Shown here: one piece after another, positions 56 to 13,661 of the stretch
Position numbering within the stretch: the first letter of the stretch is position 1
Layout: the number at the start of each line of letters is the position of its first letter
Source of the DNA: a virus
DNA length: 16,228 nt
Virus genome (UHGV): UHGV-1335354
Direction: 5' to 3' (one strand)
Program-made: the position numbers and the translations under genes
Notes under the pieces: model-generated
Seen by the model: only the letters and a program-made list of their open reading frames with translations
What the model was told of the DNA's origin: nothing
Databases searched by the model: none

Positions 56-70
56 GAATCTCCCCAGGTG

Positions 71-93
71 GAGAAGACTAAAAAAGTCTTCTC
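71..93. other. perfect 8-bp stem hairpin (GAGAAGAC / GTCTTCTC, 7-nt A-rich loop) just downstream of the tRNA; no U-tract
   Basis: Inverted repeat read directly from the sequence; function unknown (tRNA 3' processing or att-associated structure). Confidence 0.3.
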
Positions 94-552
94 TGTCAGC
101 AACTTAAACAGTTACCTATTTAATTTGCTTAGGAGTTCTACCATTGTGATCCGCCCTTAGTAACTGTCACGTTAAGTTACACGGTGAGATGACAGTATAA
201 CCTAACGTTGGCGGCAGTTGCACCTCTCACACCGCGATAGCACAACGTGAAGATAAAGCCCATCCTGGCATTGTAATGTCATCGACAGACTGAACACACG
301 CATTTAAGCCCGATGTGCGGCCTTGTGGCTGCGTAAACAGGTTTATGGTGATATTGGTCCTTGCAAACCATATGCAAGCTCTATCAGCGTTTCAGCCACG
401 CTCCCAACGGGTACACGGTTATCCTGATAAGGTGTGATCTTTCTGACAATCTGATGAAGTCGCTACGCTCCCGCTTGTTGCTGTATCACCAACGGGGCTT
501 TATGGTTTCTATTGTCTATAATAATCTCACAATTCCCCTGCATGAGGTTGAT

Positions 553-759
553 ATGACTGTTAGCTACAAGATTACTTATGAGCATAGAGACGGTGATCAA
601 ATTAGAATGGAAGAGGTTTTATTCCATTCAGAGCATGAACCAACAAAAGATGAAATTCATGATGCAGTAAGAAAAGACACTGTGAGATTTAATTCTCCAT
701 CTAATGGAGTAACGGCTGTTTCAGGGTTTAAAGTGATTTCGGTTGTCCCTGTTCCATGA
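553..759 (+). CDS. hypothetical small protein (~68 aa); the ORF track extends it to 361 only via a TTG codon
   Basis: ATG at 553 preceded by GAGG 5 nt upstream; open frame to stop at 759; followed by a hairpin. No family recognised. Confidence 0.35.
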   Translation: MTVSYKITYEHRDGDQIRMEEVLFHSEHEPTKDEIHDAVRKDTVRFNSPSNGVTAVSGFKVISVVPVP

Positions 760-770
760 ATGGTTATAGA

Positions 771-787
771 AGGGGCTGGAAGCCCCT
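771..787. terminator. short hairpin between convergent genes (AGGGGCT-GGA-AGCCCCT), candidate bidirectional terminator
   Basis: 7-bp perfect GC-rich stem with 3-nt loop between the stop at 759 (+) and the stop at 793 (-); flanking sequence AT-rich on both sides. Confidence 0.45.
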
Positions 788-792
788 AATTA

Positions 793-1113
793 TTACTTCT
801 TAATATCGCCAGTGCATTGATATTCGATAGTCACAAGTGTTTGCATACAACCAGATGAAGAAGGTTGTGAACATTGAGAAGTGAATCCACCAAAAGGCTC
901 GGCTCCTGAATATCCCCAAGCGGCACAACGCGCTTTGGCTGCATTCATGCCTTGTTGTGGATCTACAACAGGACTTTCAAACATACCGTAAGAATAACTC
1001 ATCCTAACTGTGCCGTCTGATTTGCTTCCACCAGTTGGAACGAGTTGTTTTTTTGTTGCACATCCAGAAATAATCAATGTTGAAGCAAGTAACAGCATTA
1101 AACTTTTGCGCAT
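793..1113 (-). CDS. putative lipoprotein (106 aa) with six cysteines in the mature part
   Basis: N-terminus MRKSLMLLLASTLIISGC has a signal peptide plus lipobox (I-S-G-C) typical of signal peptidase II substrates; no specific family assigned. Confidence 0.6.
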   Translation of the reverse strand: MRKSLMLLLASTLIISGCATKKQLVPTGGSKSDGTVRMSYSYGMFESPVVDPQQGMNAAKARCAAWGYSGAEPFGGFTSQCSQPSSSGCMQTLVTIEYQCTGDIKK

Positions 1114-1257
1114 GTAAATAATCCCAAGAGATAATGGTTATGTATTGATTTAAAGCGTTTTTAGATTAATGCATTAACTTAGCAAAATTAAGTCTTTTCT
1201 GATTGTTTGCAGAGTAAAAATGAGTTGCTTTCGAAATTATTTCGGATGTTTATTGTA

Positions 1258-1425
1258 TTACGGTTTTTCAAACCGTCTAACTATTGTCGCTATTGAATGG
1301 GCAATAATAGCAAGAGGATTCATTTCGTCATTGGAGGCAACAAAAAGTCGGTAACTGATAGCTACAACGAATGAAACAATAACGAGAAAGCGGATAGTGC
1401 TAAGATGTTTTGAAGATAAATGCAT
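1258..1425 (-). CDS. unannotated small hydrophobic protein (55 aa), candidate membrane peptide
   Basis: Hand-translated minus-strand ORF MHLSSKHLSTIRFLVIVSFVVAISYRLFVASNDEMNPLAIIAHSIATIVRRFEKP; ATG preceded by AGGGGG Shine-Dalgarno ~5 nt upstream; absent from the ORF track because it is under 60 aa. Confidence 0.4.
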   Translation of the reverse strand: MHLSSKHLSTIRFLVIVSFVVAISYRLFVASNDEMNPLAIIAHSIATIVRRFEKP

Positions 1426-1765
1426 AACGCCCCCTAAATGAATGTGAGGGGGATTAAATCATGCAAATTTGTTGTGTGCAATACTGGTAATTTATCCTAA
1501 TAGTCTACTATTCACCTCAATCTACGTCAACCAATATTTGATGTAGATTTGATTTTCTTTTAAAAACAATATGTTGCAATTTGTTGGGTTTTGGGGTTAG
1601 GTTGTTTTTTGGACGTTTCCATCAAGTGTAAAGATACGTTTAGCCTTCATAGTGAGTTCAGTTACTGTCTTTTTCTCTGAAATCGGCGCATACGTGATCA
1701 TCGCTTAACGAGAAGATCAGCGCCGTCAGGTCCATGCAGCGACAATTCTGAAATATCAGGAGGCA

Positions 1766-2317
1766 TTACGCTTCCTGCTCTTTCTTGATACGTTGCACCG
1801 TCTGTGTGCTGACACTGAAATCTTTTGCTACGCTCCGAATTGATCCACCATTCGCGAGAGCGGCAACAATTCCCGCTCGATCAATTGCTTTTCCATTACC
1901 ACGTTTTGCTATACGCCCAGCTGCCTTAGCTGCGGCGATCCCTTCACGTTGACGCTCAAGCATCATTTCACGTTCCATTTGTGCCACTGCTGCAAGCACT
2001 GTGAGCATCATATTCCCTGCGGGAGAGTTCTTCCCTGTCTTAAAGTCTTCTTTATGGAAATGCACAGACACGCCGCGCTCTGTTAATTGCTCAACCGTTG
2101 CCAGAAGGTCGGCTGTATTACGGCAAAGGCGATCAATGCTGTGAACATGCAAAACATCACCTTCCCGCACATAGTTCATCATTGCCTCAAACTGTGGGCG
2201 CTGGGTATTCTTGCCTGACGCTTTATCTTCAAAGACTTTATCAAGAGTTACTCCAGCTAATTGACGGTCTGTGTTTTGTTGCACAGTCGATACCCTAATG
2301 TATCCAATATTAGCCAT
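1766..2317 (-). CDS. serine recombinase, small resolvase/invertase type (183 aa)
   Basis: N-terminus MANIGYIRVSTVQQNTDRQ with catalytic Ser at position 10, conserved R/D residues of the resolvase catalytic domain, C-terminal HTH (GGSIRSVAKDFSVSTQTVQRI). AGGA Shine-Dalgarno upstream. Confidence 0.85.
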   Translation of the reverse strand: MANIGYIRVSTVQQNTDRQLAGVTLDKVFEDKASGKNTQRPQFEAMMNYVREGDVLHVHSIDRLCRNTADLLATVEQLTERGVSVHFHKEDFKTGKNSPAGNMMLTVLAAVAQMEREMMLERQREGIAAAKAAGRIAKRGNGKAIDRAGIVAALANGGSIRSVAKDFSVSTQTVQRIKKEQEA

Positions 2318-2551
2318 TTTCTTTATTCCTTCTGTGTTGATTTGTGTGTAGTGATTATTGATCGTGTTGATTAGGTGTGTAAAGGACTTTTTTCACTACG
2401 AAATTCGAAGGTTTTTAGTGTGGTGATTTAGCCTGCTTTATCACTACACGTCTTGCATGAGAATCATGTAGTTACATTTTGGTAAAATTAGCAAGCTATT
2501 AAATAGTGTGTTTATTTTGAAAAAATAATTTTTTGTTGCATTAAAGGAAAC

Positions 2552-2585
2552 TTGTTCAATAAATGGTAGAACATTTATTGAGCAA
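2552..2585. promoter_or_regulatory. 34-bp palindrome (14-bp arms, 13/14 match, 6-bp spacer): candidate protein-binding or recombination site
   Basis: TTGTTCAATAAATG-gtagaa-CATTTATTGAGCAA read from the sequence, ~235 bp upstream of the serine recombinase start. Confidence 0.35.
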
Positions 2586-2940
2586 CAATTTTGCAGTGAT
2601 ACGCTATATGCCGCATTACATAAGGCTTTGCTGATGATAATGTAAAAGTGAAGAAAGTAAGAATTGCACTTTGAAGCTACTTTTCATTGCATTTTTTAGT
2701 ATGGAATTACACGGAATAAACTATGAATATTCTACGATTTACACGAGATATTCTTGCTGTTTAATTCCGGCTTTGGAGATCAGGCATTCGCAAGAATACG
2801 CTAACGCGTTGCCTGAAAAGCCATTGCACATAATAGAGGTGAGCGTATAGCGATACACTAATCATAACAACATCTTCTTACTTTTTAGTTAGTTAGTTGT
2901 TAGTAGGTTATTGTTATGCGCGCTATTAGCGCATGTATAA

Positions 2941-2989
2941 AGGTATCATTTTTATCTAAAGGGGCTTTAGACATTTTTGATACCTTTTT
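2941..2989 (+). terminator. bipartite hairpin (outer 8-bp and inner 6-bp stems) followed by a T-run; candidate rho-independent terminator or structured RNA
   Basis: AGGTATCA...CTAAAG-GGG-CTTTAG...TGATACCT followed by TTTTTC. Confidence 0.35.
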
Positions 2990-3025
2990 CTGTGCAAGAC
3001 ACTTACCAGTGTATAGTGCGGTTTC

Positions 3026-3077
3026 CCTACCTACCCAGGAAATGAGTTCCTACCTACCCAGGAAATGAGTTCCTACA
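3026..3077. repeat. 23-bp perfect tandem direct repeat, 2.3 copies (CCTACCTACCCAGGAAATGAGTT)
   Basis: Copies at 3026-3048 and 3049-3071 are identical, followed by partial copy CCTACA. Confidence 0.9.
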
Positions 3078-3084
3078 ATACTAT

Positions 3085-3106
3085 AATTAAACTACAATTA
3101 AACTAT
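3085..3106. repeat. 11-bp AT-rich tandem repeat x2 (AATTAAACTAC / AATTAAACTAT)
   Basis: Read directly from the sequence, immediately after the 23-bp repeats. Confidence 0.7.
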
Positions 3107-3239
3107 CTTTTATAAATTCTTTTATCTTTTAAAGAATAATTATAGGGATACCCGTTAGGGAGTCTTCGACTATCCCTTAATCTATTGGCATTCGCCAGAA
3201 CCTTGCACAAGTTAGACTGATGCTTGTCATAACAGATAG

Positions 3240-3287
3240 TTTTTGTTTTTTGTTTTTTGTTTTTTGTTTTTTGTTTTTTGTTTTTTG
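3240..3287. repeat. heptanucleotide microsatellite (TTTTTTG), about 7 units
   Basis: G at 3245, 3252, 3259, 3266, 3273, 3280 and 3287 with T6 between each; perfect periodicity of 7. Confidence 0.95.
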
Positions 3288-3943
3288 TTAGTAGTTAGCT
3301 GATCTATGTTCGCTTTCCGCTCACAACGAATATGTAATCTACTATGTGCAAATAGCCTACGGCTTGCGTATGGCTAATAGTCTTGCGCTGTGCGCAGAAC
3401 GATAATTAACTAACTACCATCTAACGATTGAAATTTACTTGTGCAATAACCTGAGCGTAAGCGAATGGTTGTTAGTGTCGCGTTACCCTTTGGGGATGCT
3501 AACGCATAACATGACAAAACAACCAACAACAAAAAAGAAAGAATGGTTTTTGTAGTTGAAGGTTAAATAAGATTCTACCGCTTAAATCAAGCCGTAGGCG
3601 AGCTTAACAGGGTAATGTAAGGGAAACACCTTAGCGGTAATAGATTAGCTCGTTACAGAGCTTCTGAGAACTTTGCAGGTATTTTATAAGATGTCTGAAA
3701 TCAGAGTTTATCTATCCACCATCTTTCCATCATCTGATAAATCAAAAATAAGACCCTTAAATAAGCCTCTGACGAGATAAACAACCTCTACATAAGGGAA
3801 TGTATTGTTTTTATCAAAACCCCGTCAGAGTGCGATTGAGAGCGTTTTAGACAACAGGGAAGAATTGTACCAGAGTAGGCAGCACAAAAAGCTAAGAAAA
3901 ATTATAAGAAATTGAAAATGATCAAATTTTTTATAAAAGAGGG

Positions 3944-3972
3944 TTGACAAAGCCGCCGTTATGTAGTATTGT
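3944..3972 (+). promoter_or_regulatory. candidate sigma70 promoter for the rightward small-gene operon
   Basis: TTGACA (3944-3949), 17-bp spacer, TATTGT (3967-3972); about 115 bp upstream of the first gene. Confidence 0.45.
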
Positions 3973-4088
3973 AAGTAGGGAGGGGAGAAACATCTCTCTC
4001 CATCTAAATAATCAAATCACAGAACACTGCACTTTGAGCCGTCAGGCTGCAAGGTGTGTTTTTCTTTTATCTAAATAAGGAGTTTTTT

Positions 4089-4271
4089 ATGAAATGGTAT
4101 ACACCGGAACACGTCGTAGAGGCATTTAAAAAAGGTGAGCTAACACGACATCAAGTAAGGATGAACAGGAACACAGCGCGGCGCTGTGGTTATCCAGAGC
4201 GTGAAAAATGCTTTGACGATGCACTAAAAATTATTGATGAACTGCGTAAGGCAGAAGCAGAGAAAGAATAA
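4089..4271 (+). CDS. hypothetical small protein (60 aa); ORF track start 4056 is probably too far upstream
   Basis: ATG at 4089 preceded by TAAGGAG at optimal spacing; protein MKWYTPEHVVEAFKKGELTRHQVRMNRNTARRCGYPEREKCFDDALKIIDELRKAEAEKE. Confidence 0.5.
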   Translation: MKWYTPEHVVEAFKKGELTRHQVRMNRNTARRCGYPEREKCFDDALKIIDELRKAEAEKE

Positions 4272-4294
4272 TAACAGGAGAAGGAGAAAACCAA

Positions 4295-4471
4295 ATGAAT
4301 ATTAATTTTGATTCTGCAACTTATAACGCGTTGTTAAATCGTGCAAAGGCAGAAGGGAAATCAATTCCAAAACTTGTTAATGAATTACTAATTACAGTCC
4401 TTACAAAGGAGGAACTAAATGAACCAAAACACCAAAACAATTGCCGAAGCAAAAGCGCAATGCCTCAATAA
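4295..4471 (+). CDS. unannotated small ORF (58 aa), possible ribbon-helix-helix (CopG/Arc-like) DNA-binding protein
   Basis: Hand-translated: MNINFDSATYNALLNRAKAEGKSIPKLVNELLITVLTKEELNEPKHQNNCRSKSAMPQ; GGAGAAGGAG upstream; N-terminal 40 aa resemble an RHH fold by composition; overlaps the next gene by 53 nt in another frame. Confidence 0.4.
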   Translation: MNINFDSATYNALLNRAKAEGKSIPKLVNELLITVLTKEELNEPKHQNNCRSKSAMPQ

Positions 4472-5084
4472 GAAAGATAGTAAACAAACATATGTAGTAG
4501 TTGAACAATGGCTGAAGATGTTTAAAAAGTGGTTCTCACCGTCAGGTAAGGAATACACCGCGACACTTCCAGCCGTTGAAATCTACAGTTACGTAGCTGG
4601 GTTCAATGAACAAGGGCAAGAATGTTACGCCAATCAAAAAACATTAGCTAATATTGGAATGGTTAGTGATCGTCAGGTGCGTAATATTATAAATATGTTT
4701 ATTGATATGGGTGTTCTTTCTGTAGAGGCACGGGACGGGCAAACATCACTCTATAAAGCATTACCCTTTACAGATGCACACATCACACCACCGGAAGACG
4801 TAAAAACCTCTGTAAACGTAGAACAGCCTGCACCTGAAACACAGGAACCGTTAGAAGCGACACACTCTATTGAGCAGGAAACACAGGCAGAAATCACGGA
4901 ACAATCTGATCTTTTTACATGGCTTATTTCCATAGACAGCCAAAAGCCTATGCAAGAAGAAACAGAAAATTTTATAAAACGTGCACTGACCTCGAAGAGG
5001 ATAATTCTTGAAGATGATGCTTTTAATGCACTGATGATAGCCCTGAGAAAAGAAAGTGAAATCTATGACTCAATACCATTTTAA
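4419..5084 (+). CDS. putative winged-helix/HTH DNA-binding protein (221 aa), replication-initiator-like or regulator, with acidic low-complexity C-terminal half
   Basis: AAGGAGG Shine-Dalgarno 7 nt upstream; central segment ECYANQKTLANIGMVSDRQVRNIINMFIDMGVLSV resembles HTH modules of phage/plasmid replication initiators; no Walker motif. Confidence 0.55.
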   Translation: MNQNTKTIAEAKAQCLNKKDSKQTYVVVEQWLKMFKKWFSPSGKEYTATLPAVEIYSYVAGFNEQGQECYANQKTLANIGMVSDRQVRNIINMFIDMGVLSVEARDGQTSLYKALPFTDAHITPPEDVKTSVNVEQPAPETQEPLEATHSIEQETQAEITEQSDLFTWLISIDSQKPMQEETENFIKRALTSKRIILEDDAFNALMIALRKESEIYDSIPF

Positions 5085-5096
5085 GGAGAATAAAAA

Positions 5097-5354
5097 ATGA
5101 AATACAACCTGACATTAAACAAACGAACATTCGAAATTACAGAAAGCGGCTACACACTGGCAAAACAGATCGCTGATAGCAATTATAAGCTACCCGCGAT
5201 TATCAGCTTTCAGGAGTTACCGCACAGTAAAGAACACACACAGCATTGGCTAAATCACCTAAGCCATTTTGGGGTAATTCAGTATGAAGCTGTGAATAGT
5301 CAGACGTTCCGTTTGCTCGAGGTAAACCCGTTTGAATTGTGGATGACACTGTGA
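5097..5354 (+). CDS. hypothetical protein (85 aa)
   Basis: ATG preceded by AAGGAG; part of the co-oriented operon; no family recognised. Confidence 0.5.
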   Translation: MKYNLTLNKRTFEITESGYTLAKQIADSNYKLPAIISFQELPHSKEHTQHWLNHLSHFGVIQYEAVNSQTFRLLEVNPFELWMTL

Positions 5355-5557
5355 TCATATTCGATGGCGAATTTTCACAAGAAATCTTTCTGCAATATTT
5401 ACGGGAAAGAACGGGAATGATTCTGTTTGATTCTGAGTTTTCCGGTGTGGTAGGTGAGCAATTTTTATATGCTCTTCTCGATAACCTAAGTAAACAAGGA
5501 TTATTGCAGTATACAAAAACTCATATGAAAGCATTCAGAATCGACTCTGTAGCTTAA
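5339..5557 (+). CDS. hypothetical protein (72 aa), GTG start overlapping the upstream gene
   Basis: Open frame with GTG at 5339 overlapping the preceding stop; no family recognised. Confidence 0.35.
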   Translation: MDDTVIIFDGEFSQEIFLQYLRERTGMILFDSEFSGVVGEQFLYALLDNLSKQGLLQYTKTHMKAFRIDSVA

Positions 5558-5685
5558 AACAAACAACAAACAACTATCAAACATCTTGAAGGGTGAAACA
5601 ATGGAAAGCTTAATATTTTTCTTAGTATTTATGATCGCTTCCTTTTTTAACACTGCAACAAGAAAAACAAAACGAAGGGGAAGCA

Positions 5686-6066
5686 ATGAGCAAGAAAAAA
5701 GGCAAGAAAAACGTAATAACAACTATTGGCGAAGCATGTGATCAGTATGCGTTAAACAATCCTCGCAAATATAATTATGAGCATGATGCACAACCAGGCG
5801 AGGAATTGATCTTTATACTTGAAGAACCAAGCCCAGAATTGACAGACGAAGAATTATCAATCATTCAAAGTATGGATGGTGTTTACTTCAATCCGCGCCC
5901 ACGCAAAACAACAATCATTGATAGTAGTCTTCTTAAAAGATGGCAGTGTTTAGGCTTCCAGGATATGAATCATTTTCGTGGCTACATGGCTCTTAATAGT
6001 TTGCAGTATGCAGGCGCAAGAGAGACAGAGTTACTTATGCTTGAAAGAATAAAAATAGACGATTAA
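5686..6066 (+). CDS. hypothetical protein (126 aa), lysine-rich N-terminus
   Basis: ATG preceded by GAAGGGGAAG; no family recognised. Confidence 0.5.
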   Translation: MSKKKGKKNVITTIGEACDQYALNNPRKYNYEHDAQPGEELIFILEEPSPELTDEELSIIQSMDGVYFNPRPRKTTIIDSSLLKRWQCLGFQDMNHFRGYMALNSLQYAGARETELLMLERIKIDD

Positions 6067-6107
6067 CAGCGTTGGCTGAATATAACCCTTAACAAAAGGA
6101 AAATAAA

Positions 6108-6329
6108 ATGATTAACAAAGCAATTTTAGAGACAACCACTTTTCATGATCTTAAGCTTCTTTCAGAATGTTTTATAAATATTATTGAACGTGCAAAGGAA
6201 GAGAACGATCTGGCAACTCTGGATGACGTTGTAGACAACATTGCAACTTATAAAATCCCGCTCACTATTGCTATGAAGAAAGCACGCGAAGCACAACAAA
6301 AATTAGAACAATTAGAGGAAGTGGCATAA
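6108..6329 (+). CDS. hypothetical small acidic protein (73 aa)
   Basis: ATG preceded by AAAGGAAA; stop overlaps the next start (ATAATGA). Confidence 0.5.
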   Translation: MINKAILETTTFHDLKLLSECFINIIERAKEENDLATLDDVVDNIATYKIPLTIAMKKAREAQQKLEQLEEVA

Positions 6330-6643
6330 TGAGCGAAGTTCACACCGTAACTATTCAGCTATACGATTTAATCATCGACCTTCAAAAATCTGTTAACGAA
6401 GCCATAGAAGATCCGACAGAATTTAATATAGGAAAAGCCGTTCTCAATCTTCAATCTCTACATGATGCAATGTCAATGTTAGTTGTAGCTTGTGAGGAGG
6501 CCGAAGGCGGGAAAGTTGATGCAGAAGATCTTGCAAACTTCAATCTCATGTTGGCTGATTGTAGTTGTGTTGTTCAAAGTGCAATAGAAGACTTACAGCC
6601 GCTTATTGATAACCTGTTAAGGGGTAAGCATGAGCAACTTTAA
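6329..6643 (+). CDS. hypothetical strongly acidic protein (104 aa)
   Basis: GAGGAAG Shine-Dalgarno; Asp/Glu-rich composition; translationally coupled to neighbours. Confidence 0.5.
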   Translation: MSEVHTVTIQLYDLIIDLQKSVNEAIEDPTEFNIGKAVLNLQSLHDAMSMLVVACEEAEGGKVDAEDLANFNLMLADCSCVVQSAIEDLQPLIDNLLRGKHEQL

Positions 6644-6863
6644 AACTAAGCGTGTGGAGTGCCTGGCGCTCTCTGAGATGGGCGTGTCCTGCGCCTGTTT
6701 CACCATTGGAAAGATCTATACCGGACTACTGAACACAGAGAATAGCTTGATGGTTATCACTGATGACAACGGCAACAACCAGGCGGTTGTAGTGGGCGGT
6801 GCGTGTGCTTTCGGTAGCTGGAAACTGACTACAAAGAAAAATGAAAATAGCACGAATAGCTAA
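6630..6863 (+). CDS. hypothetical small cysteine-containing protein (77 aa)
   Basis: AAGGGG upstream; overlaps the upstream stop; local GC higher than neighbours. Confidence 0.45.
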   Translation: MSNFKTKRVECLALSEMGVSCACFTIGKIYTGLLNTENSLMVITDDNGNNQAVVVGGACAFGSWKLTTKKNENSTNS

Positions 6864-6872
6864 AGATATACA

Positions 6873-6901
6873 TTGACTTTATAACAAGAATGTTATATAA
6901 T
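6873..6901 (+). promoter_or_regulatory. near-consensus sigma70 promoter with no convincing ATG-initiated ORF downstream
   Basis: TTGACT (6873-6878), exactly 17-bp spacer, TATAAT (6896-6901). Confidence 0.45.
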
Positions 6902-6956
6902 AATAAATATGCTTGGAAGATGATAAAGCAAGGATTGCATATTCTCCAATTATATC

Positions 6957-7316
6957 TTACCTCTGCAGCCTCTTATTGTCAATAAGAAAATCTAAGAGAC
7001 GGCGACCGCCACGATCGCCCATCTCTTTAAAACAGTTTTTAGAAAACATCCTCGTGTTTTTCATTGTTGGGTCTGTTCTGATTAGTTTTTCCCTTTTGGT
7101 AAGCGCGGTAGTTTCATTCCTTTTCTGCCGCTGCTTATTTTCAACAAAGAAAAGTTTTCTAAAAGCTGTTTTATAACAGCCTATACCCCTATAAGTTATT
7201 GAACGTTTCTTGGCTGGGTATATGCCTTGCGGCATAAAATCACTATTAAAATTATGTTTCCAACCCGTAGCAAGTTGAGCGTAGTTGAGTGATTCCTTGT
7301 TATCTGTTCTCGCCAT
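6957..7316 (-). CDS. possible basic protein (119 aa, Lys/Arg-rich); may be spurious
   Basis: ATG-initiated minus-strand ORF, weak and poorly spaced Shine-Dalgarno, rare codons; start codon is embedded in a palindrome; lies antisense to the orphan promoter. Confidence 0.25.
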   Translation of the reverse strand: MARTDNKESLNYAQLATGWKHNFNSDFMPQGIYPAKKRSITYRGIGCYKTAFRKLFFVENKQRQKRNETTALTKREKLIRTDPTMKNTRMFSKNCFKEMGDRGGRRLLDFLIDNKRLQR

Positions 7317-7345
7317 ACCTGATGGGCGTCAGGTTATGAACAGAT
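7302..7345. promoter_or_regulatory. nested inverted repeats (outer ATCTGTTC/GAACAGAT, inner CCTGA/TCAGG): candidate operator or RNA structure
   Basis: Read from the sequence; arms share the CAGAT/CCTGAT motif with the terminator stem at 7431-7477. Confidence 0.35.
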
Positions 7346-7430
7346 AGCGCCTTGCGCCAGTTACACATCCCTTACGGTCGGTGAATCCTAAATAGCCAAC
7401 TACCTGGTAACGGTGCATTGTATTTGAGAA

Positions 7431-7486
7431 AACAGATCAGGAAAGACTTTCCAAAGGGTCTACTCGCCTGATCTGTTCTTCTTTTT
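7431..7486 (+). terminator. long-stem hairpin followed by a T-run: candidate rho-independent terminator
   Basis: Perfect 11-bp stem AACAGATCAGG / CCTGATCTGTT with a 25-nt loop, followed by CTTCTTTTT. Confidence 0.5.
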
Positions 7487-7591
7487 AGAACATATAACAA
7501 TGACTGATCATTCTTATATGCTCTTCTCATGAAAGTATATAATCAATGTTATGCTTAATTCGAACATTAAAACCCCCCTCTAATTAATATA

Positions 7592-7619
7592 GCCAGCCTA
7601 CCCGCTGGCATATTTTTAT
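7592..7619 (+). terminator. short hairpin plus T-run, second candidate terminator before the structural-like operon
   Basis: GCCAGC-ctaccc-GCTGGC followed by ATATTTTTA. Confidence 0.35.
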
Positions 7620-7656
7620 AAGTGGAAAACAAATCTGTTATAAATGGGACCACTCC

Positions 7657-7860
7657 ATGAAAAAACAAGACATGATAATCAGTAAAGACGGGGAAACGAT
7701 GACTGTTAGTGATGAAAACATCCTTAAAGTTGCCGCACTGTTGGGAGTTACTCCCGAAAGTCTTCGCTCTACTACTGAACAATTGTTTAAATCTGCTAAT
7801 AATGCGGAAACACCCGCACAGGCTATTTTAAACCGAATCACACAACTGAAAGGAAAATAA
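7657..7860 (+). CDS. hypothetical small protein (67 aa), first gene of the structural-like operon
   Basis: ATG-initiated; predicted largely helical C-terminal half; scaffold-like role is speculation. Confidence 0.45.
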   Translation: MKKQDMIISKDGETMTVSDENILKVAALLGVTPESLRSTTEQLFKSANNAETPAQAILNRITQLKGK

Positions 7861-7865
7861 TATAT

Positions 7866-8252
7866 ATGGCTAACCCATACGGCGTTAAATTCGCCCCTGT
7901 AAACGCGAGCAATGACCTTGTGCGTTGCAAAATTATCGCCTATTCCGGCGATCCCCTGCTGCAAGACCGTTTAATCACACTGGCGGCACCACTGACAGAA
8001 GATGTTATTGTCGGTGATCTGCTGAAAGCTGATGGCACCAAAGCAACCGCCGCCGCTGATATCGCTTACGTCGCTGTAGAACCTTCGTTTGCAGGTCAGG
8101 AAAGCGTAGTGGTTGCACATCCTACTTTCGTTATTCTGGCGCGTGCTGGTATCGAATTTAACGGCATGGCAGAAGAAAGCGTGATCTCAAAACTGCAATC
8201 TATTGGTTTCGTGATCGCTGGTTATTCCGAAGCTGCAATCCCTACTACTTAA
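7866..8252 (+). CDS. possible phage head decoration-like protein (128 aa)
   Basis: Size, position directly upstream of the capsid-sized gene, and a loose pattern resemblance to lambda gpD/SHP-type decoration proteins; E. coli-like codon usage. Assignment unverified. Confidence 0.55.
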   Translation: MANPYGVKFAPVNASNDLVRCKIIAYSGDPLLQDRLITLAAPLTEDVIVGDLLKADGTKATAAADIAYVAVEPSFAGQESVVVAHPTFVILARAGIEFNGMAEESVISKLQSIGFVIAGYSEAAIPTT

Positions 8253-8270
8253 TATAAGGAAATATAAATA

Positions 8271-9305
8271 ATGAATATTCAAGAATTATTTGGTCGTCAG
8301 GCGAGCGTAGTAAGCCCATTCGAATATGAGCAAGGCTTAAACCTGCTGTTCTCTTCCCTGGAGATCTTTGATAAGCAATCTCACAGCACTAACAGTATTC
8401 TTCTGACTACTGCAATTGAAAGCTTTATGCAGATTGCAAATGAGCAAGAACCCTACGCACAAAGTCAGTGGGACTCAAGCAAGCGCGGCACCTTCTCAAA
8501 CGTAATGTTTGAAATGAAGCACCTTGCAACCATCAACAGCGTGACAAGTCGTGATCTTGAACAGTACAGCCGTAAAAATCTTTCTACTGCTGACTCTATG
8601 CTGCTGGCGATCAATGATTTTGCTAATCAGCATTACCGCTCACATGAGAACGCTGTAGAACGTGATCTGCTGCGTGCAATCCTCACGCTGAAAGTAGAAT
8701 CTCAATTTGCAGGTCAAGGTGATATTGATTTGCTGGAAGGTGACGCTAAAACCGTAGCGCCTGCAATTGACTTCACAAGCACTACCGTAAACCCTTACCG
8801 TGCACTGGCTAAGATTGTTCGTCAACAGTCTAACATTCTGGGCGAATCCCTTGCGGCTAAACGTTCCGGTGTTCTTGTGCTGGCTGCTGGCGGCGCTGCT
8901 GATGGTCTGCGTTACAACGATATGCTGAAAGATCAGGTTGTTTACTCCAGCAATGCACAGGCAAGCGCGGCAGTAACTAAGATCGTAGCTGATAACCCAG
9001 CGTATGATGCTTTCCAGCTTGCACAGGTGACTGTTATTGATGTTAGTGACTTCCCGTCAATCGTTGCAGAAATCGGTGAAAATGGTTTGGTTGTGATCCC
9101 GCTGTTCCCTGCTGATGTTCAAGCTTACGTGCTGCATACAGGCGTCGCGGTCCGTCATGCCGAACACGGTAAAGATGCGGAAACACATCACCAATATCTG
9201 ACACAGGATCAGTTTATGTTCCCGTCAGTGTGCACCGAAACGGCTTACCTGCCATTCATTCAGAAAGTAGTTGCTAAAGCGATTATCTTCTCTGAAGCAC
9301 AGTAA
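8271..9305 (+). CDS. possible major capsid protein of the lambda gpE-like family (344 aa)
   Basis: AAGGAA Shine-Dalgarno; length matches gpE (~341 aa); N-terminal segment QELF...FEYEQGLNLLF resembles the gpE N-terminus as I recall it; follows the decoration-like gene as in lambda D-E order. No alignment run. Confidence 0.6.
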   Translation: MNIQELFGRQASVVSPFEYEQGLNLLFSSLEIFDKQSHSTNSILLTTAIESFMQIANEQEPYAQSQWDSSKRGTFSNVMFEMKHLATINSVTSRDLEQYSRKNLSTADSMLLAINDFANQHYRSHENAVERDLLRAILTLKVESQFAGQGDIDLLEGDAKTVAPAIDFTSTTVNPYRALAKIVRQQSNILGESLAAKRSGVLVLAAGGAADGLRYNDMLKDQVVYSSNAQASAAVTKIVADNPAYDAFQLAQVTVIDVSDFPSIVAEIGENGLVVIPLFPADVQAYVLHTGVAVRHAEHGKDAETHHQYLTQDQFMFPSVCTETAYLPFIQKVVAKAIIFSEAQ

Positions 9306-9347
9306 GAATAATAACGCTCCAGCACGTTAAAAAATAATGCTGGCGAT

Positions 9348-9414
9348 AAAGGGCAAAAGGGATTAACTAACCTGTAAAGCAAATACAGTAACGGATCTCT
9401 TTGCCCTTTTTTCG
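9348..9414 (+). terminator. long hairpin (AAGGGCAAA ... TTTGCCCTT) followed by a T-run downstream of the capsid-like gene
   Basis: 9-bp perfect stem with ~42-nt loop then TTTTTCGTTT; an inner 6-bp inverted repeat CCAGCA/TGCTGG lies at 9318-9342. Confidence 0.4.
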
Positions 9415-9448
9415 TTTATACCGTCTATTAAATATTGAGAGAAAAATC

Positions 9449-9649
9449 ATGAGCGAACAAAACAAACAAGTAGAATTATATAAAGCAGTGCGCACACTGG
9501 CAGAAAACACCGATGAATCCATTGTAAACGTTAGCGCCTTATGCCGTTTTCTGGATGTGGATCATAATCGTGTGCGTCAATATGCACATTACCACAATGT
9601 AAGTGCAATCGCGGCTATTCAGTATGTGATGAATAACCCTGTAAAATAA
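9449..9649 (+). CDS. hypothetical small protein (66 aa); ORF track start 9401 is a TTG inside the upstream hairpin
   Basis: ATG at 9449 preceded by GAGAGAAAAATC; no family recognised. Confidence 0.45.
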   Translation: MSEQNKQVELYKAVRTLAENTDESIVNVSALCRFLDVDHNRVRQYAHYHNVSAIAAIQYVMNNPVK

Positions 9650-9667
9650 TAAAAGGAGTACCCAACA

Positions 9668-11515
9668 ATGAGTTTAGATATTTCTGTATCTACTTTAAAA
9701 AATACAGTAACCTTTGTTACCGATCATAAAAGCCTGAATAAAGCTAAAGCAGAAGTTGAAAAACTCCGTAAGCAAATGTCAGCCGTGAAAGACGTAGAAA
9801 TACGTGTTAAGACACACAAACAATCAACAGCTAAAACAAAAAAAGACGTAGACGATATTGCTAAAAAGCAAGCACAGGTAGATAAGGCAAATCTCAAAGC
9901 ACAAAAAGCGGCTCAACGTGTAGCGGCGCGAGAACAAAAAGCCCTGGCAGCACGCAAAGAGAAAGCAGAATTAAAACTGTTAGATGTTGGATCAAGTATT
10001 AGTGCAATGAATCGTCTTAATGTGTCTGAACAATACAAAGCTATTGCACAAGCTAAAGCTATTGCACACGAATATGAGAAGGGCGCTATTAGCCTGGCAC
10101 GTATGAATAGCCAAATGAAACGACTTCAACAGCAACAACGTAAGATTAACGGCAATCGTAACGCTCATGCTAAAGCTTATGCACCTGTTAAGGGTAGCGG
10201 GAGTATTGGCGGCGGTGCTGCTGCTGTTATGCTGGGCGGCTTAGGCGCTGGCGCTGCATTCTTGGCTATGAGTAAAGCAAACGAATTCGTTGCTAATAGT
10301 TTTGCCAATGCTGAGACACAAGGTGAATTATATAGCCGTGCGAAGCTGGGCGGTGTAGACGTTAACCAGATGAATAATATTGAGCAATGGGCGTATAAAA
10401 ACGGCGTTGATTCAATGATGGGCGAACAAGGGAAACGTAAATACCTCGACCAAATGAAAGATGTGCGTGAACGTGCAACCAAATCTTATGATGAGACTGA
10501 ATATGTAGTTGATAAAAAAACTGGTAAAGGGGAATGGAAGGGCGGCGATTCAGGTATTAATACTTTATTAAACGAAGGTTTCTTAACTAAGAAAGATTTA
10601 AAAGACTTCGCTAATAATCCGGCAGGTTTAATAAGTAAAGCAACACAAGGAATGGTGGCGAAAGGTTATTCTGATGCACAGGTGGGGTCACGGCTTGAAG
10701 ACCTGGGAGATGACCTTATGTTGACCTCCAAATATTGGACACGATCCGCTAAAGAAGTGGAACAATCAGCCCGTGAACAAAAAGAATCAGGACGCTGGAT
10801 AACGCAGGCACAACAGGAAAGCGTGATTAAATTCCGTGAACTGAATAATGCACTTACCGGACTTTCTGACTCACAAGGGATCGCCTTTGTTGATGGCTTT
10901 ATGAAATCTCTCGATCCTGCTGTGATTGAAGAATTTAAAAAGAGCATGGTTGCAATGCTGCCAATGTTTACCAAATTGGGCGAGGCTGTAGGGGGGCTGC
11001 TTAATGCGATCATGAAAACTATCAACTGGTTGATGAAAAATGACGAGAAGACGGCAGCTATTCAGAAGAATTTAGGTGATGCCCCTCCTTTAAGTAATGA
11101 AGGAATGAAGAAGAATTTAGATAATCTCACTCCTGATCAATATAAAGGCGCTGGCACTGCAACAACTGCACCGGATAATAGTAACTCTCTGTTTAATACT
11201 ATTAAGGGCTTTTTTGTTAATGGTGATGATTCTCCTTCTGGCGGTCAGGCTGCAATGCAATATGACGTTACAGGGCAAAACATTGCCAACCTGAAAAACA
11301 GTGCTGCACAGCAAGCTATGCAAGCTCCAGCCTACACATTTGCGCCTGTTCTCAATTTTGCACCTGAATTACAAGTTAATGCACAAGTGCCGCTAACTAT
11401 TCAGAGTGATACCGGACGATTGAGCGATTATATCGACTTCAAATCTAAAGCCTCTGCCGCTGAGTTTAGCAAGCTATTAACCCTGGGCGTTATGTCAGGC
11501 GGGTCAACCTATTAA
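9668..11515 (+). CDS. coiled-coil, glycine-rich protein (615 aa), tape-measure-like
   Basis: AAGGAG Shine-Dalgarno; N-terminal ~160 aa K/A/Q/E-rich coiled-coil-like; Gly/Ala hydrophobic segment GSGSIGGGAAAVMLGGLGAGAAFLAMS; no enzymatic motif or Walker A seen. Confidence 0.6.
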   Translation: MSLDISVSTLKNTVTFVTDHKSLNKAKAEVEKLRKQMSAVKDVEIRVKTHKQSTAKTKKDVDDIAKKQAQVDKANLKAQKAAQRVAAREQKALAARKEKAELKLLDVGSSISAMNRLNVSEQYKAIAQAKAIAHEYEKGAISLARMNSQMKRLQQQQRKINGNRNAHAKAYAPVKGSGSIGGGAAAVMLGGLGAGAAFLAMSKANEFVANSFANAETQGELYSRAKLGGVDVNQMNNIEQWAYKNGVDSMMGEQGKRKYLDQMKDVRERATKSYDETEYVVDKKTGKGEWKGGDSGINTLLNEGFLTKKDLKDFANNPAGLISKATQGMVAKGYSDAQVGSRLEDLGDDLMLTSKYWTRSAKEVEQSAREQKESGRWITQAQQESVIKFRELNNALTGLSDSQGIAFVDGFMKSLDPAVIEEFKKSMVAMLPMFTKLGEAVGGLLNAIMKTINWLMKNDEKTAAIQKNLGDAPPLSNEGMKKNLDNLTPDQYKGAGTATTAPDNSNSLFNTIKGFFVNGDDSPSGGQAAMQYDVTGQNIANLKNSAAQQAMQAPAYTFAPVLNFAPELQVNAQVPLTIQSDTGRLSDYIDFKSKASAAEFSKLLTLGVMSGGSTY

Positions 11516-11562
11516 TCATCGCTGTGGGGCTGTTTAGCCCCCTTAAATAAGGATTACAAATT

Positions 11563-12240
11563 ATGGCTTATGGTGCTTTAACCATCGGACGACCGACAGA
11601 ATCACAAGTAAACAGCACAAGTAACGATTCTAACGCGAAAGCGACGAAAGGACAGAACGGTTTCGCTATCATCACCTCTAACCTCGGCAGTGGTGCTAAT
11701 GCTGCGTATGCAGAGTATCAAGCTCTCAGCTTTGACAGCGTGGAATCGACAAAAGTTAGTCGCAATGCGGACGTAACAAGCTATGCCGTTCAGGATGGGG
11801 CTATGGTGTCCGATCACATCCAGATCAAGAACAATAAGTTTTCATTGCAAGGGCGCGTAAGTGAAACAGTATTGAAGCTTAACCCTGATATGCTTAAGAA
11901 CGCGGGTATTAACGGCAATCGTAGAATGCTTATGCTTGAATACCTAAATCAGATCATGGACTCACGCCAGCCCTTCATGTTGATAACAGAACATCGTAAT
12001 TTTGACAATGTGGTGCTGGTTGGGATTGATTACGAAGAAGAAGCCAGCGAATCATTGCTCTTTAATCTTGAATTCGAACAAATACGCCTTGTGAGCTATG
12101 CAACCACTAACGCTATTGCTACAAAGACACAGAGCAATAAATCGACAGGTGGCAGTGTTAAAACTAAGGTTAACCCGACACCACAAAAAGCACCTACGAG
12201 TACAGGTGAGGACGTTATAACGCCAGTATTTAAACAATAA
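11563..12240 (+). CDS. hypothetical protein (225 aa), last gene of the structural-like operon
   Basis: AAGGA Shine-Dalgarno; followed by a hairpin; no family recognised. Confidence 0.55.
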   Translation: MAYGALTIGRPTESQVNSTSNDSNAKATKGQNGFAIITSNLGSGANAAYAEYQALSFDSVESTKVSRNADVTSYAVQDGAMVSDHIQIKNNKFSLQGRVSETVLKLNPDMLKNAGINGNRRMLMLEYLNQIMDSRQPFMLITEHRNFDNVVLVGIDYEEEASESLLFNLEFEQIRLVSYATTNAIATKTQSNKSTGGSVKTKVNPTPQKAPTSTGEDVITPVFKQ

Positions 12241-12282
12241 CAATAGCGGTACTATAAAATGCTCCGTAACGAGATAATCCTA

Positions 12283-12313
12283 AAAGAGGCTCCCATTACA
12301 AGGAAGCCTCTTT
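12283..12313. terminator. hairpin between convergent genes (AAAGAGGCT ... AGCCTCTTT), candidate bidirectional terminator
   Basis: 9-bp perfect stem with 13-nt loop, T-rich 3' flank, between stop at 12240 (+) and stop at 12334 (-). Confidence 0.5.
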
Positions 12314-12333
12314 ATTGCGCCTATGGCGTTGTT

Positions 12334-13554
12334 TTAAGCCTTAAAATCAATATTTAATTCATATCTTACTAATTCTACATATTCAGCTAATTCTTGAATG
12401 CTTGCCCCTTGTGAGTAGGTGCGAAAGGCTTCTGTTTTAGCTATCTGCTCTGTATGTCCGGTAATGGCTCCGATCCGCTGTTCAGGCACTCCGGCACGAT
12501 CAAGACAAGTGATAAACATCCCGCGCAAGCTGTGAAAGCATTGTCTATTTGTAGCGATTGGCAAGACGCTACGACGTAAACGTGAGAATGCTTGAGAATA
12601 GAAAGGGCCTTTCTTACCGTCGATTCTTTTTACTTTGTTCGAGTGAGGGAACAAATATTCACCATAATTATGATTTAAATATTCATCGACAATAATCGAT
12701 AGTCTCGAATGTATCGGAACGTGCCTGATCCCTGCTTTAGTCTTACTTTTGCTGATATAAAAACAGCGTATTCCTTCCACAGTTACAACTTCTGACTTTT
12801 TCAGGCTTGCCAGTTCGTCTAATCTGCATCCTGAAAACAAGCCCATTAAAATAATATTTCTGATCTCCGGCTCCGCTGCATCAAGTAGCTTTTGCATTTG
12901 TTCAGGTGTAAACGGTTGATAACTCTCGATTGTGCGACGTGCTTCGAGGTTATGACCGTGAAAAGGGTTACTGTCTGGTATTCCGTCATAACGGCGTTTA
13001 GCAAATTCATAGAGCGATCCTAAGCATGTAAGCCAGTTTTGACGAGATTGATCGGCTGCTCCTCGTTGCTTCTGGTCATCTAAGAATACTGTTACAAGCC
13101 GTCTGCCTATTTTCTCAATATGAATATCATCTTTCTGAATGCTTTGTAAAAATAGCTCAACGGCCCTTGCTGATTTCTGTAGTGTTGAGTATGAACGACG
13201 CTCTCTGTAGCATTCGGCGTATTCGTCACGTATTAGGCACAGGGAAGGCGATGCATAACCGCGTTTTACGGCTCTTTGCGTGTTTTTATTGGCCCTTGCC
13301 TCTGAATGTAAGGATTCAATAGCTTGTTGTAACCTCCTTTCGGGGTTATCAGGATTATGTTTCCGCTTTAGTTCCTCCCATTCTAATAATAGATGGTTTC
13401 TGAATCTTCTCGCCTCATTCAGATCTCGTGTAGATGTGCTTTTTCTCCACAACTTGTAAGGGTAAAGATGACGTAAGTATTTAGGAACAAAAATCTGAAA
13501 CATCCAGATCCCATCTTTTCTCTTAAATAAGTATGCTTGGCTCTTGATCGACAC
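12334..13554 (-). CDS. int: tyrosine-type site-specific integrase (406 aa), GTG start
   Basis: C-terminal catalytic-domain signature: Arg in GCRLDE, HSLRG box, ITGH, terminal Tyr region; AGAGGA Shine-Dalgarno 8 nt before GTG; lies 86 bp inside the right direct repeat. Confidence 0.9.
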   Translation of the reverse strand: MSIKSQAYLFKRKDGIWMFQIFVPKYLRHLYPYKLWRKSTSTRDLNEARRFRNHLLLEWEELKRKHNPDNPERRLQQAIESLHSEARANKNTQRAVKRGYASPSLCLIRDEYAECYRERRSYSTLQKSARAVELFLQSIQKDDIHIEKIGRRLVTVFLDDQKQRGAADQSRQNWLTCLGSLYEFAKRRYDGIPDSNPFHGHNLEARRTIESYQPFTPEQMQKLLDAAEPEIRNIILMGLFSGCRLDELASLKKSEVVTVEGIRCFYISKSKTKAGIRHVPIHSRLSIIVDEYLNHNYGEYLFPHSNKVKRIDGKKGPFYSQAFSRLRRSVLPIATNRQCFHSLRGMFITCLDRAGVPEQRIGAITGHTEQIAKTEAFRTYSQGASIQELAEYVELVRYELNIDFKA

Positions 13555-13631
13555 GATAATGATCCTCTATTATCACGTAATCAGTTACCTATGATTGATC
13601 ACAAAATCTTTATTTTACAGCAGGTTATTAT

Positions 13632-13661
13632 GGGTTTCCTCGATTCCCTTCGCCCGCTCCA
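13632..13661 (+). repeat. attR: direct repeat of the tRNA-Gly 3' end
   Basis: 13640-13661 is identical (22/22) to tRNA positions 34-55 (TCGATTCCCTTCGCCCGCTCCA); upstream GGGTT also matches with a 3-4 bp insertion. Confidence 0.85.

Follow-up and report, generated by a model that had tools for sequence, protein, structure and literature searches.

The invertible DNA segments of the Hin, Gin, Cin, and Pin systems combine a serine invertase with 26-bp inverted crossover sites. A different kind of variation is seen upstream of the hmw genes of Haemophilus influenzae, where 7-bp repeats change in number by slipped-strand mispairing; simple-sequence repeats of this type are rarely used by E. coli. 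Iteron origins, including ori-lambda with its O protein, P1 oriR, and pSC101, place initiator-specific direct repeats beside an AT-rich region, and RSF1010 oriV has its single-strand initiation hairpins, ssiA and ssiB, in an inverted repeat that adjoins the iterons and the AT-rich region. Here we describe a locus in a mobile element of E. coli that resembles each of these systems in some respect: a T/G-rich tract and an A/C-rich tract, inverted relative to each other, bracket a short segment next to a putative replication origin.

The window, by which we mean the entire stretch of 16,228 nucleotides that was analyzed (UHGV virus genome UHGV-1335354), is E. coli DNA, 99.4% identical to strain EC100. 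It starts in the 3' part of a tRNA-Gly gene, recognized by Rfam as a cut tRNA at 1-52, and ARAGORN reports no complete tRNA gene in the window. The 3' end of tRNA-Gly recurs as 22-nt direct repeats, TCGATTCCCTTCGCCCGCTCCA, at 34-55 and 13640-13661, and these bound a 13.6 kb integrated element (island 56-13661) that adjoins genes of the ETT2 secretion system. The element is integrative and phage-related, and its genes include the following:

1766-2317, minus strand: serine recombinase (phrog_125)
4089-4271, plus strand: 60-aa protein, first of the rightward operon
4419-5084, plus strand: Rep-like initiator gene (HTH_36; phage O-like and replication-initiation families, from Pfam and PHROGs)
8271-9305: 344-aa protein, called 'major capsid protein' by annotation in related islands
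9668-11515: tape-measure-like protein
11563-12240: Dit-like protein
12334-13554, minus strand: tyrosine integrase, beside the right repeat

The 344-aa protein has no match in Pfam, PHROG, or NCBIfam and no tblastn match in 50,697 phage genomes, and neither a terminase nor a portal was found in the element, despite its tape-measure-like and Dit-like proteins. Searches of Pfam, PHROGs, and NCBIfam with the small island proteins were uninformative.

Of 5426 complete E. coli genomes, 749 contain DNA related to the gene-free gap that holds the tracts, and it is always unannotated; the carriers include O104:H4, O26:H11, and ST131 strains. Islands of this kind occupy tRNA-Gly, tRNA-Thr, and, in one truncated case, tRNA-Leu. 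The family appears to be essentially confined to E. coli: when one genome per bacterial species was scanned with the small protein, two loci were returned, one from E. coli and the other from a contig filed under a Bacillota MAG that contains the same island region. A search of phage DNA with the window gave no match at E 1e-5, and a plasmid set gave two E. coli records. No published description of the island was found in the literature; EcCIMP1, which sits at tRNA-Thr, is a different element, with AlpA and a primase. Complete genomes, viral contigs, and metagenomes supplied 67 related loci, and individual loci are given below by their L numbers.

Both tracts fall within a 1.77 kb gap at 2318-4088, which has no annotated feature and contains only ORFs of at most 59 codons. 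From left to right, the gap holds these features:

2552-2585 and 2939-2987: two strong palindromes
3026-3076: iterons CCTACCTACCCAGGAAATGAGTT, 2.2 copies (100% in Tandem Repeats Finder)
3077-3145: AT-rich stretch, a putative DNA-unwinding element, about 17% G+C by our own count and conserved whatever the iteron type
3240-3289, plus strand: (TTTTTTG)7 microsatellite, the left arm (Tandem Repeats Finder: period 7, 7.1 copies, 100% matches, score 100)
3290-3513: modular interior with recurring motifs and small hairpins, as seen in alignments
3480-3505, plus strand: conserved hairpin with stems of 6 bp and 3 bp, a tetraloop, and an AUGY bulge on the 3' side, immediately ahead of the A/C tract
3514-3543, plus strand: A/C-rich tract ACAAAACAACCAACAACAAAAAAGAAAGAA, the right arm, slippage-prone, inverted-repeat partner of the T tract at 79-85%
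3944-3972, plus strand: sigma-70-type promoter TTGACA-17-TATTGT that drives the rightward operon, found at the homologous column of 27 of 27 aligned sequences

The left part of this gap differs between island types. The equivalents of 2712-3073 are not homologous from one type to another, and each type has its own tandem repeats: CCTACC(C/T)AGGAAATGAGTT at 3026-3076 in the window (2.2 copies), GGTAGGTCACTGTGAGCTAGGGG in 2-7 copies, and ACAGAAnnCTGTTA and GTAACGnnnnGTTAC in five or so copies each. (The copy number of the 23-mer iteron type ranges over 2-7 in L005, L009, L017, and L028.) These four repeat types match five Rep sequence clusters in 51 of 51 loci, which are the loci of the five main Rep clusters with intact upstream DNA, and the same AT-rich stretch (3077-3145) follows every repeat type. 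All five Rep alleles match phrog_270, 'replication initiation protein,' at E 1e-5 to 1e-8, as well as O-like families; the Pfam match of the Rep-like gene product to HTH_36 (E 1e-4) is below the gathering cut-off. On the basis of the initiator-matched tandem repeats and the adjacent AT-rich stretch, and by comparison with ori-lambda, P1, and pSC101, we infer that the gap contains an iteron-type, initiator-specific replication origin. As in known iteron origins, repeats that change with the allele of an O-like or Rep-like initiator are followed by a conserved AT-rich stretch. Unlike ori-lambda, P1 oriR, and pSC101, the iterons here lie some 1.35 kb upstream of the initiator gene, not inside or beside it, and to their right come about 800 nt of conserved, modular DNA that lacks ORFs and holds both tracts. 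The order of iterons, AT-rich region, and a stretch bracketed by an inverted repeat and containing conserved hairpins is also that of RSF1010 oriV; the present locus, whose origin role is predicted, differs in that no element-encoded primase was found, the hairpins appear to be biased to one strand, and there is no sequence similarity. Two palindromes of the gap differ in their distribution, with TTGTTCAATAAATG-N6-CATTTATTGAGCAA lying in a block common to most islands examined and AAAGGTATCATTTTTATCTAAAG-GGG-CTTTAGACATTTTTGATACCTTT being specific to the island type of the window.

To the right of the tracts, the strong promoter at 3944-3972 is the only conserved sigma-70-type promoter in the aligned gap (from 3170 onward); it is downstream of both tracts and points away from them. 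The leader of about 100 nt that follows this promoter ends in a terminator-like hairpin and T-run (approximately 4028-4072) placed directly before the ribosome-binding site of the first gene, and this arrangement suggests that the rightward operon may be controlled by attenuation or antitermination. The leader region also gives a plus-strand structure signal, with z -3.2.

With respect to base composition, when A-T is accumulated along the full 16 kb window, the curve is lowest at 3500, a position that moves to 3557 with both tracts masked. The tracts mark the point at which a T-rich top strand gives way to an A-rich one; to the left is the leftward recombinase gene and to the right the rightward operon. 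A strand-switch, one of the possibilities raised in the original prediction, is present in this limited, compositional sense, between oppositely directed units.

The T/G-rich tract is exactly what had been predicted, namely seven copies of TTTTTTG on the plus strand. Tandem Repeats Finder delimits perfect head-to-tail 7-bp units at 3240-3289, which makes the tract a microsatellite (VNTR). Close relatives differ from one another by entire units in the length of this tract: seven in the window, four in L001, L002, L033, L055, and L056, three in L003, L004, L049, L057, and L058, two in L041, and one in the beta lineage. Relatives outside the lineage of the window have a single unit, in the form TTTTT(T)GTTTGTTG. 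Comparison across the islands shows that the unit was expanded to 2-7 copies in the lineage of the window, with a short TTTTTTGTTTGTTG motif as the ancestral form. Because the single unit is found in all relatives outside that lineage, the long T tract is a recent expansion specific to one lineage and not a conserved feature. The tract is generated by slippage, and the neighboring (TTAG)n run at 2885-2904 also changes by whole units, with one TTAG more in L001 and one fewer in L004. We considered the T tract as a terminator and rejected this, as it is without a G+C-rich stem before it on either strand.

The comparison with the hmw repeats of Haemophilus influenzae is close in form and distant in context. 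Both consist of perfect 7-bp head-to-tail units in non-coding DNA, and in both the copy number varies, for the T tract among strains that are otherwise nearly identical. Unlike the hmw repeats, the T tract has no promoter or gene start within several hundred bases, shows no sign of phase or level control, and adjoins a putative replication origin.

An A/C-rich tract does exist to the right, at 3514-3543 rather than at the 3505-3532 first proposed for it. It also varies by whole units, as L063 carries an extra CAACAAC. What is unusual about the locus is the presence of two oppositely skewed low-complexity runs approximately 230 nt apart. Over 24-30 nt, 79-85% of the positions in the two runs are complementary. 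Without gaps, the best pair of arms is 3246-3272 with 3517-3543 (27 nt, 81%, with 244 nt between them); BLAST of the window against itself pairs the tracts at 83% over 30 nt with one gap (E 0.009), and the A/C tract is the sole site of the 16 kb window to reach 21 or more matches in 27 against the T tract's reverse complement. This degree of matching is nevertheless reached often by sequences of the same composition. When the right arm was subjected to mononucleotide shuffling, 16% of trials reached the observed 22/27, and the RNA duplex energy of the window's arms, -19.1 kcal/mol, compares with -18.0 +/- 2.7 kcal/mol for dinucleotide-preserving shuffles (z -0.4). The complementarity of the tracts in the window is therefore compositional only, a T/G-rich run set against an A/C-rich run. 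Of the loose inverted pair that had been proposed, the complementarity survives, at a level that composition explains; similarity no greater than expected for AT-rich low-complexity sequence, which the shuffles give for the arms in the window, is the result that the original prediction itself had named as refuting.

Two other similarities involve the A/C tract. Together with its hairpin (3480-3543), it has a better second inverted partner at 2875-2936 (76% over 46 nt, E 0.11), consisting of a T/G-rich (TTAG)n run, whose copy number is strain-variable, and then a GC hairpin. Further, a search to E 10 found a 22-nt exact A/C-rich string shared between 3500-3539 and 53 Escherichia phages, chiefly Phapecoctavirus, which was treated as a low-complexity coincidence. 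For instance, Escherichia phage nieznany (L032, region 1061-2743) has the string ATAACATGACAAAACAACCAAC in common with window positions 3506-3527, and other Phapecoctavirus match the same query position. These Phapecoctavirus-type phages, of 145-152 kb, hold the string inside an ORF-free, A/C-rich gap of their own, 1.7 kb long. A profile search of the phage gap with the island alignment found no further similarity (E 0.9), and the string common to the phage gap and the window is probably a coincidence.

The arrangement of two inverted runs around a few hundred base pairs, with a small serine recombinase gene nearby, is reminiscent of the Hin, Gin, Cin, and Pin segments, and the original prediction had allowed for an invertible segment. 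On this explanation, the tracts would be crossover sites at which the neighboring recombinase (1766-2317), which is DNA-invertase-like (phrog_125, E 7e-62) and encoded 920 nt to the left of the tracts, inverts the DNA between them. We searched for the alternative orientation with a synthetic query in which 3240-3543 was reversed between its native flanks, using a threshold of at least 80% coverage. None of the 489 matching E. coli records contained the inverted form at this coverage, and the best places, at 65%, corresponded to the flanks only. By comparison, 332 of 353 records contain the native arrangement at a coverage of at least 80%, and all loci mapped against the window flanks (from the 67 fetched) are colinear with the window. 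Only one orientation is seen in the population, and an invertible segment is not supported.

Other observations argue in the same direction. The segment 3240-3543 contains no promoter-like site and only ORFs of up to 40 codons, none of them conserved, and consequently there is no promoter or gene within it to be switched. The arms are low-complexity runs that vary in length by slippage, not specific crossover sites, and they are unlike the 26-bp sites of the Hin/Gin type. Moreover, the recombinase module to the left of the gap can be exchanged, as seen at this position in L002, L003, L006, L009, L010, and L013. Across islands it is the 183-aa serine recombinase, a 192-aa tyrosine recombinase accompanied by a 71-aa gene, or an unrelated 183-aa protein encoded on the opposite strand, or it is missing altogether, and the gap with both arms is kept in islands that have a tyrosine recombinase, the unrelated 183-aa gene, or no recombinase there. 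We consider inversion by the serine recombinase extremely improbable, and close to refuted; the tracts would not be recombination sites.

Some further observations concern mobility at and around the segment. The segment is found at a median of one place per genome, always within the island, and both arms are present in every untruncated locus examined. A miniature transposable element with terminal inverted repeats (MITE) was rejected as an explanation, given the single copy and the lack of an empty site. IS interruptions or truncations within or beside the gap occur in L012 (IS2), L068 (IS1), and UTME strains (IS elements). Separately, TTATCAAAACC at 3811-3821 resembles a Hin/Gin half-site; it has no partner.

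The arms look different when the family as a whole is considered. Left arms are of two types, alpha, which is expanded and then continues as TTAGTAGTTAGCTGATC, and beta, TTTTTTGTTTGTTGATGTTAGTTAGTAGATC; right arms are of three types, R1, R2, and R3, and the window is alpha-R1. The four combinations seen (alpha-R1, alpha-R2, beta-R2, and beta-R3) indicate that left and right arm types can recombine freely. Combinations other than that of the window pair better than shuffled sequences. Beta-R3 arms have a duplex energy of -20.1 against -11.7 +/- 2.5 for shuffles (z -3.3), beta-R2 arms reach z -2.5 with 13-14 nt of perfect complementarity, and alpha arms with three units reach z -3.4 with R2. For this reason, an imperfect inverted repeat of some 20-40 nt was probably ancestral at the site of the tracts, and it may have been functional.

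One function that such pairing could have is to close a folded single-stranded domain, either in an untranslated RNA read rightward or in the top DNA strand when it is exposed at origin opening, with conserved hairpins as the functional core (for example, of a priming or loading signal). The distance to the origin's AT-rich region, about 100 nt, would suit this role, as would the better-than-shuffled pairing in the relatives. The history of the arms does not. The pairing of the window's own arms is at the level of chance, arm types recombine, and the inner part of the putative helix has been broken or deleted on one side without compensation (a C>A change in L008-type loci, T>A in L031, a deletion in L007-type loci, and G>A in L013). 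RNAalifold, applied to 28 sequences, keeps only a 5-bp closing helix between the T-run and the A-run, with a covariation term of only -1.1 kcal/mol, and over the whole segment 2 of 48 pairs are compensatory. As judged from these alignments, the inverted repeat formed by the tracts does not behave like a conserved helix.

The interior consists of units of about 110 nt in which motifs recur, namely TGTGCAA(A)TA, GCGCTGTGCGC, and ATCTAACGAT. In L004-L007 such a unit is present twice, and in L064 it has been lost almost completely, with the junctions of duplication and loss at TGTGCAAT motifs, and the length from arm to arm ranges from 159 to 402 nt across islands. Relative to islands of the beta lineage, identity is 95% at 3170-3239, 98% at 3318-3372, and 100% at 3576-3603; it is 81% in the first gene and 57-67% in the promoter and leader. 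A perfect 12-nt inverted match links two of the blocks, between GCCTACGGCTTG at 3355-3366 and CAAGCCGTAGGC at 3588-3599. The persistence of non-coding blocks of 30-70 nt at 95-100% identity, across islands whose genes differ by about 20%, argues for strong selection on these blocks for a cis-acting role. A search of 50,697 phage genomes gave no match to the core blocks and thus no indication of a packaging site for a helper phage.

One conserved hairpin of this interior lies at 3480-3505. All of its nine pairs are formed in 100% of cells of the alignment; three pairs have changed on both sides, and two single changes lead to U.G. The hairpin exists in two sequence versions, which keep all nine pairs through the three double changes. 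Because these compensatory changes are confined to two haplotype lineages, they amount in effect to one event. Column shuffling gives z -4.5 to -5.5 on the plus strand around the hairpin (3480-3540), the strongest signal of the region. In four local stems with single-sided changes (L030, L058, L003, and L036), 4/4 changes give G.U on the plus strand, not A.C; with a chance probability of approximately 0.06, this is only a lead toward folding of the top strand. Folding of the single sequence 3225-3560 gives z -1.45 on the plus strand and -2.72 on the minus strand and is not decisive. Taken together, the 95-100% conserved blocks beside a gene of 81% identity and a hairpin with three compensatory changes indicate that the bracketed segment is under selection. 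The predicted structured segment is thus upheld weakly, for this hairpin, and does not extend to pairing between the tracts, which lacks covariation support.

Whether a transcript could include the segment was examined through signals for its synthesis. There is no conserved promoter on either strand between 3170 and 3940, no terminator-like site in 2200-4150 apart from one inside the first gene, and no Rfam family at the gathering score in the whole window, with chance-level hits only in 2250-4150 at up to E 10. There is accordingly no evidence from a promoter, terminator, or Rfam family for an RNA made from the segment. The preserved hairpin, the plus-strand column-shuffle signal, and the G.U changes speak for a folded domain closed by the tracts; the modest plus-strand value for the single-sequence fold, the single event behind the compensatory changes, the lack of RNA signals, and the behavior of the arms speak against it, and we regard it as unlikely. 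A related reading, that the segment with its blocks and the hairpin at 3480-3505 is a folded single-stranded element (an undescribed RNA or a DNA signal of the top strand) working with the iteron origin of a widespread, satellite-like E. coli element, seems to us quite improbable as well.

The same blocks bear on another explanation, in which the origin includes the T tract as a working component. As an accessory region that melts easily or is bent, it would adjust initiation or spacing through its number of repeat copies, and the A/C tract would be its mirror across an array of protein-binding sites, such as a packaging or copy-control site. The T tract is 86% A+T, and some 95 nt separate its start from the AT-rich stretch (3077-3145) on its left; the linear interior motifs TGTGCAAT, ATCTAACGAT, and GCGCTGTGCGC occur in 0-2 units, in the manner of arrays of binding sites; and conservation of the core blocks greatly exceeds that of the flanking genes. 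However, most family members manage with a single TTTTTTG unit, so that the long tract is not needed; no allele of a neighboring protein, among Rep and the first small protein, co-varies with arm or hairpin type; and the phage genomes searched provide no pointer to packaging through the core blocks. A functional T tract of this kind is, in our view, doubtful.

We consider it probable that the tracts are slippage-prone low-complexity runs in cis-acting DNA that flanks an origin, that the long T tract is neutral or at most modulatory, and that the two runs do not function together. The A/C tract would be a second, shorter run of the same nature, both lying just to the right of the iteron-type origin. 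If the tracts act at all, they may do so as an easily melted or flexible spacer beside the AT-rich region, and not as a pair, whereas the motifs and hairpins of the interior would be cis-acting sites for replication, packaging, or regulation.

The T tract as a finding is of little importance in itself: this simple repeat switches nothing, and its seeming partner results from composition. It could serve as a marker for strain typing within one lineage. The conserved interior is the part most worth an experiment. Were the segment indeed a folded element, pairing of the U/T-rich run with the A/C-rich run would hold the domain shut, and such a domain could serve in priming, in the loading of a helicase, or in controlling replication or the early operon through RNA. 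More broadly, following up the tracts has defined an apparently unannotated, predicted replication origin and a 1.77 kb ORF-free control region of an element that is present in about 14% of complete E. coli genomes.
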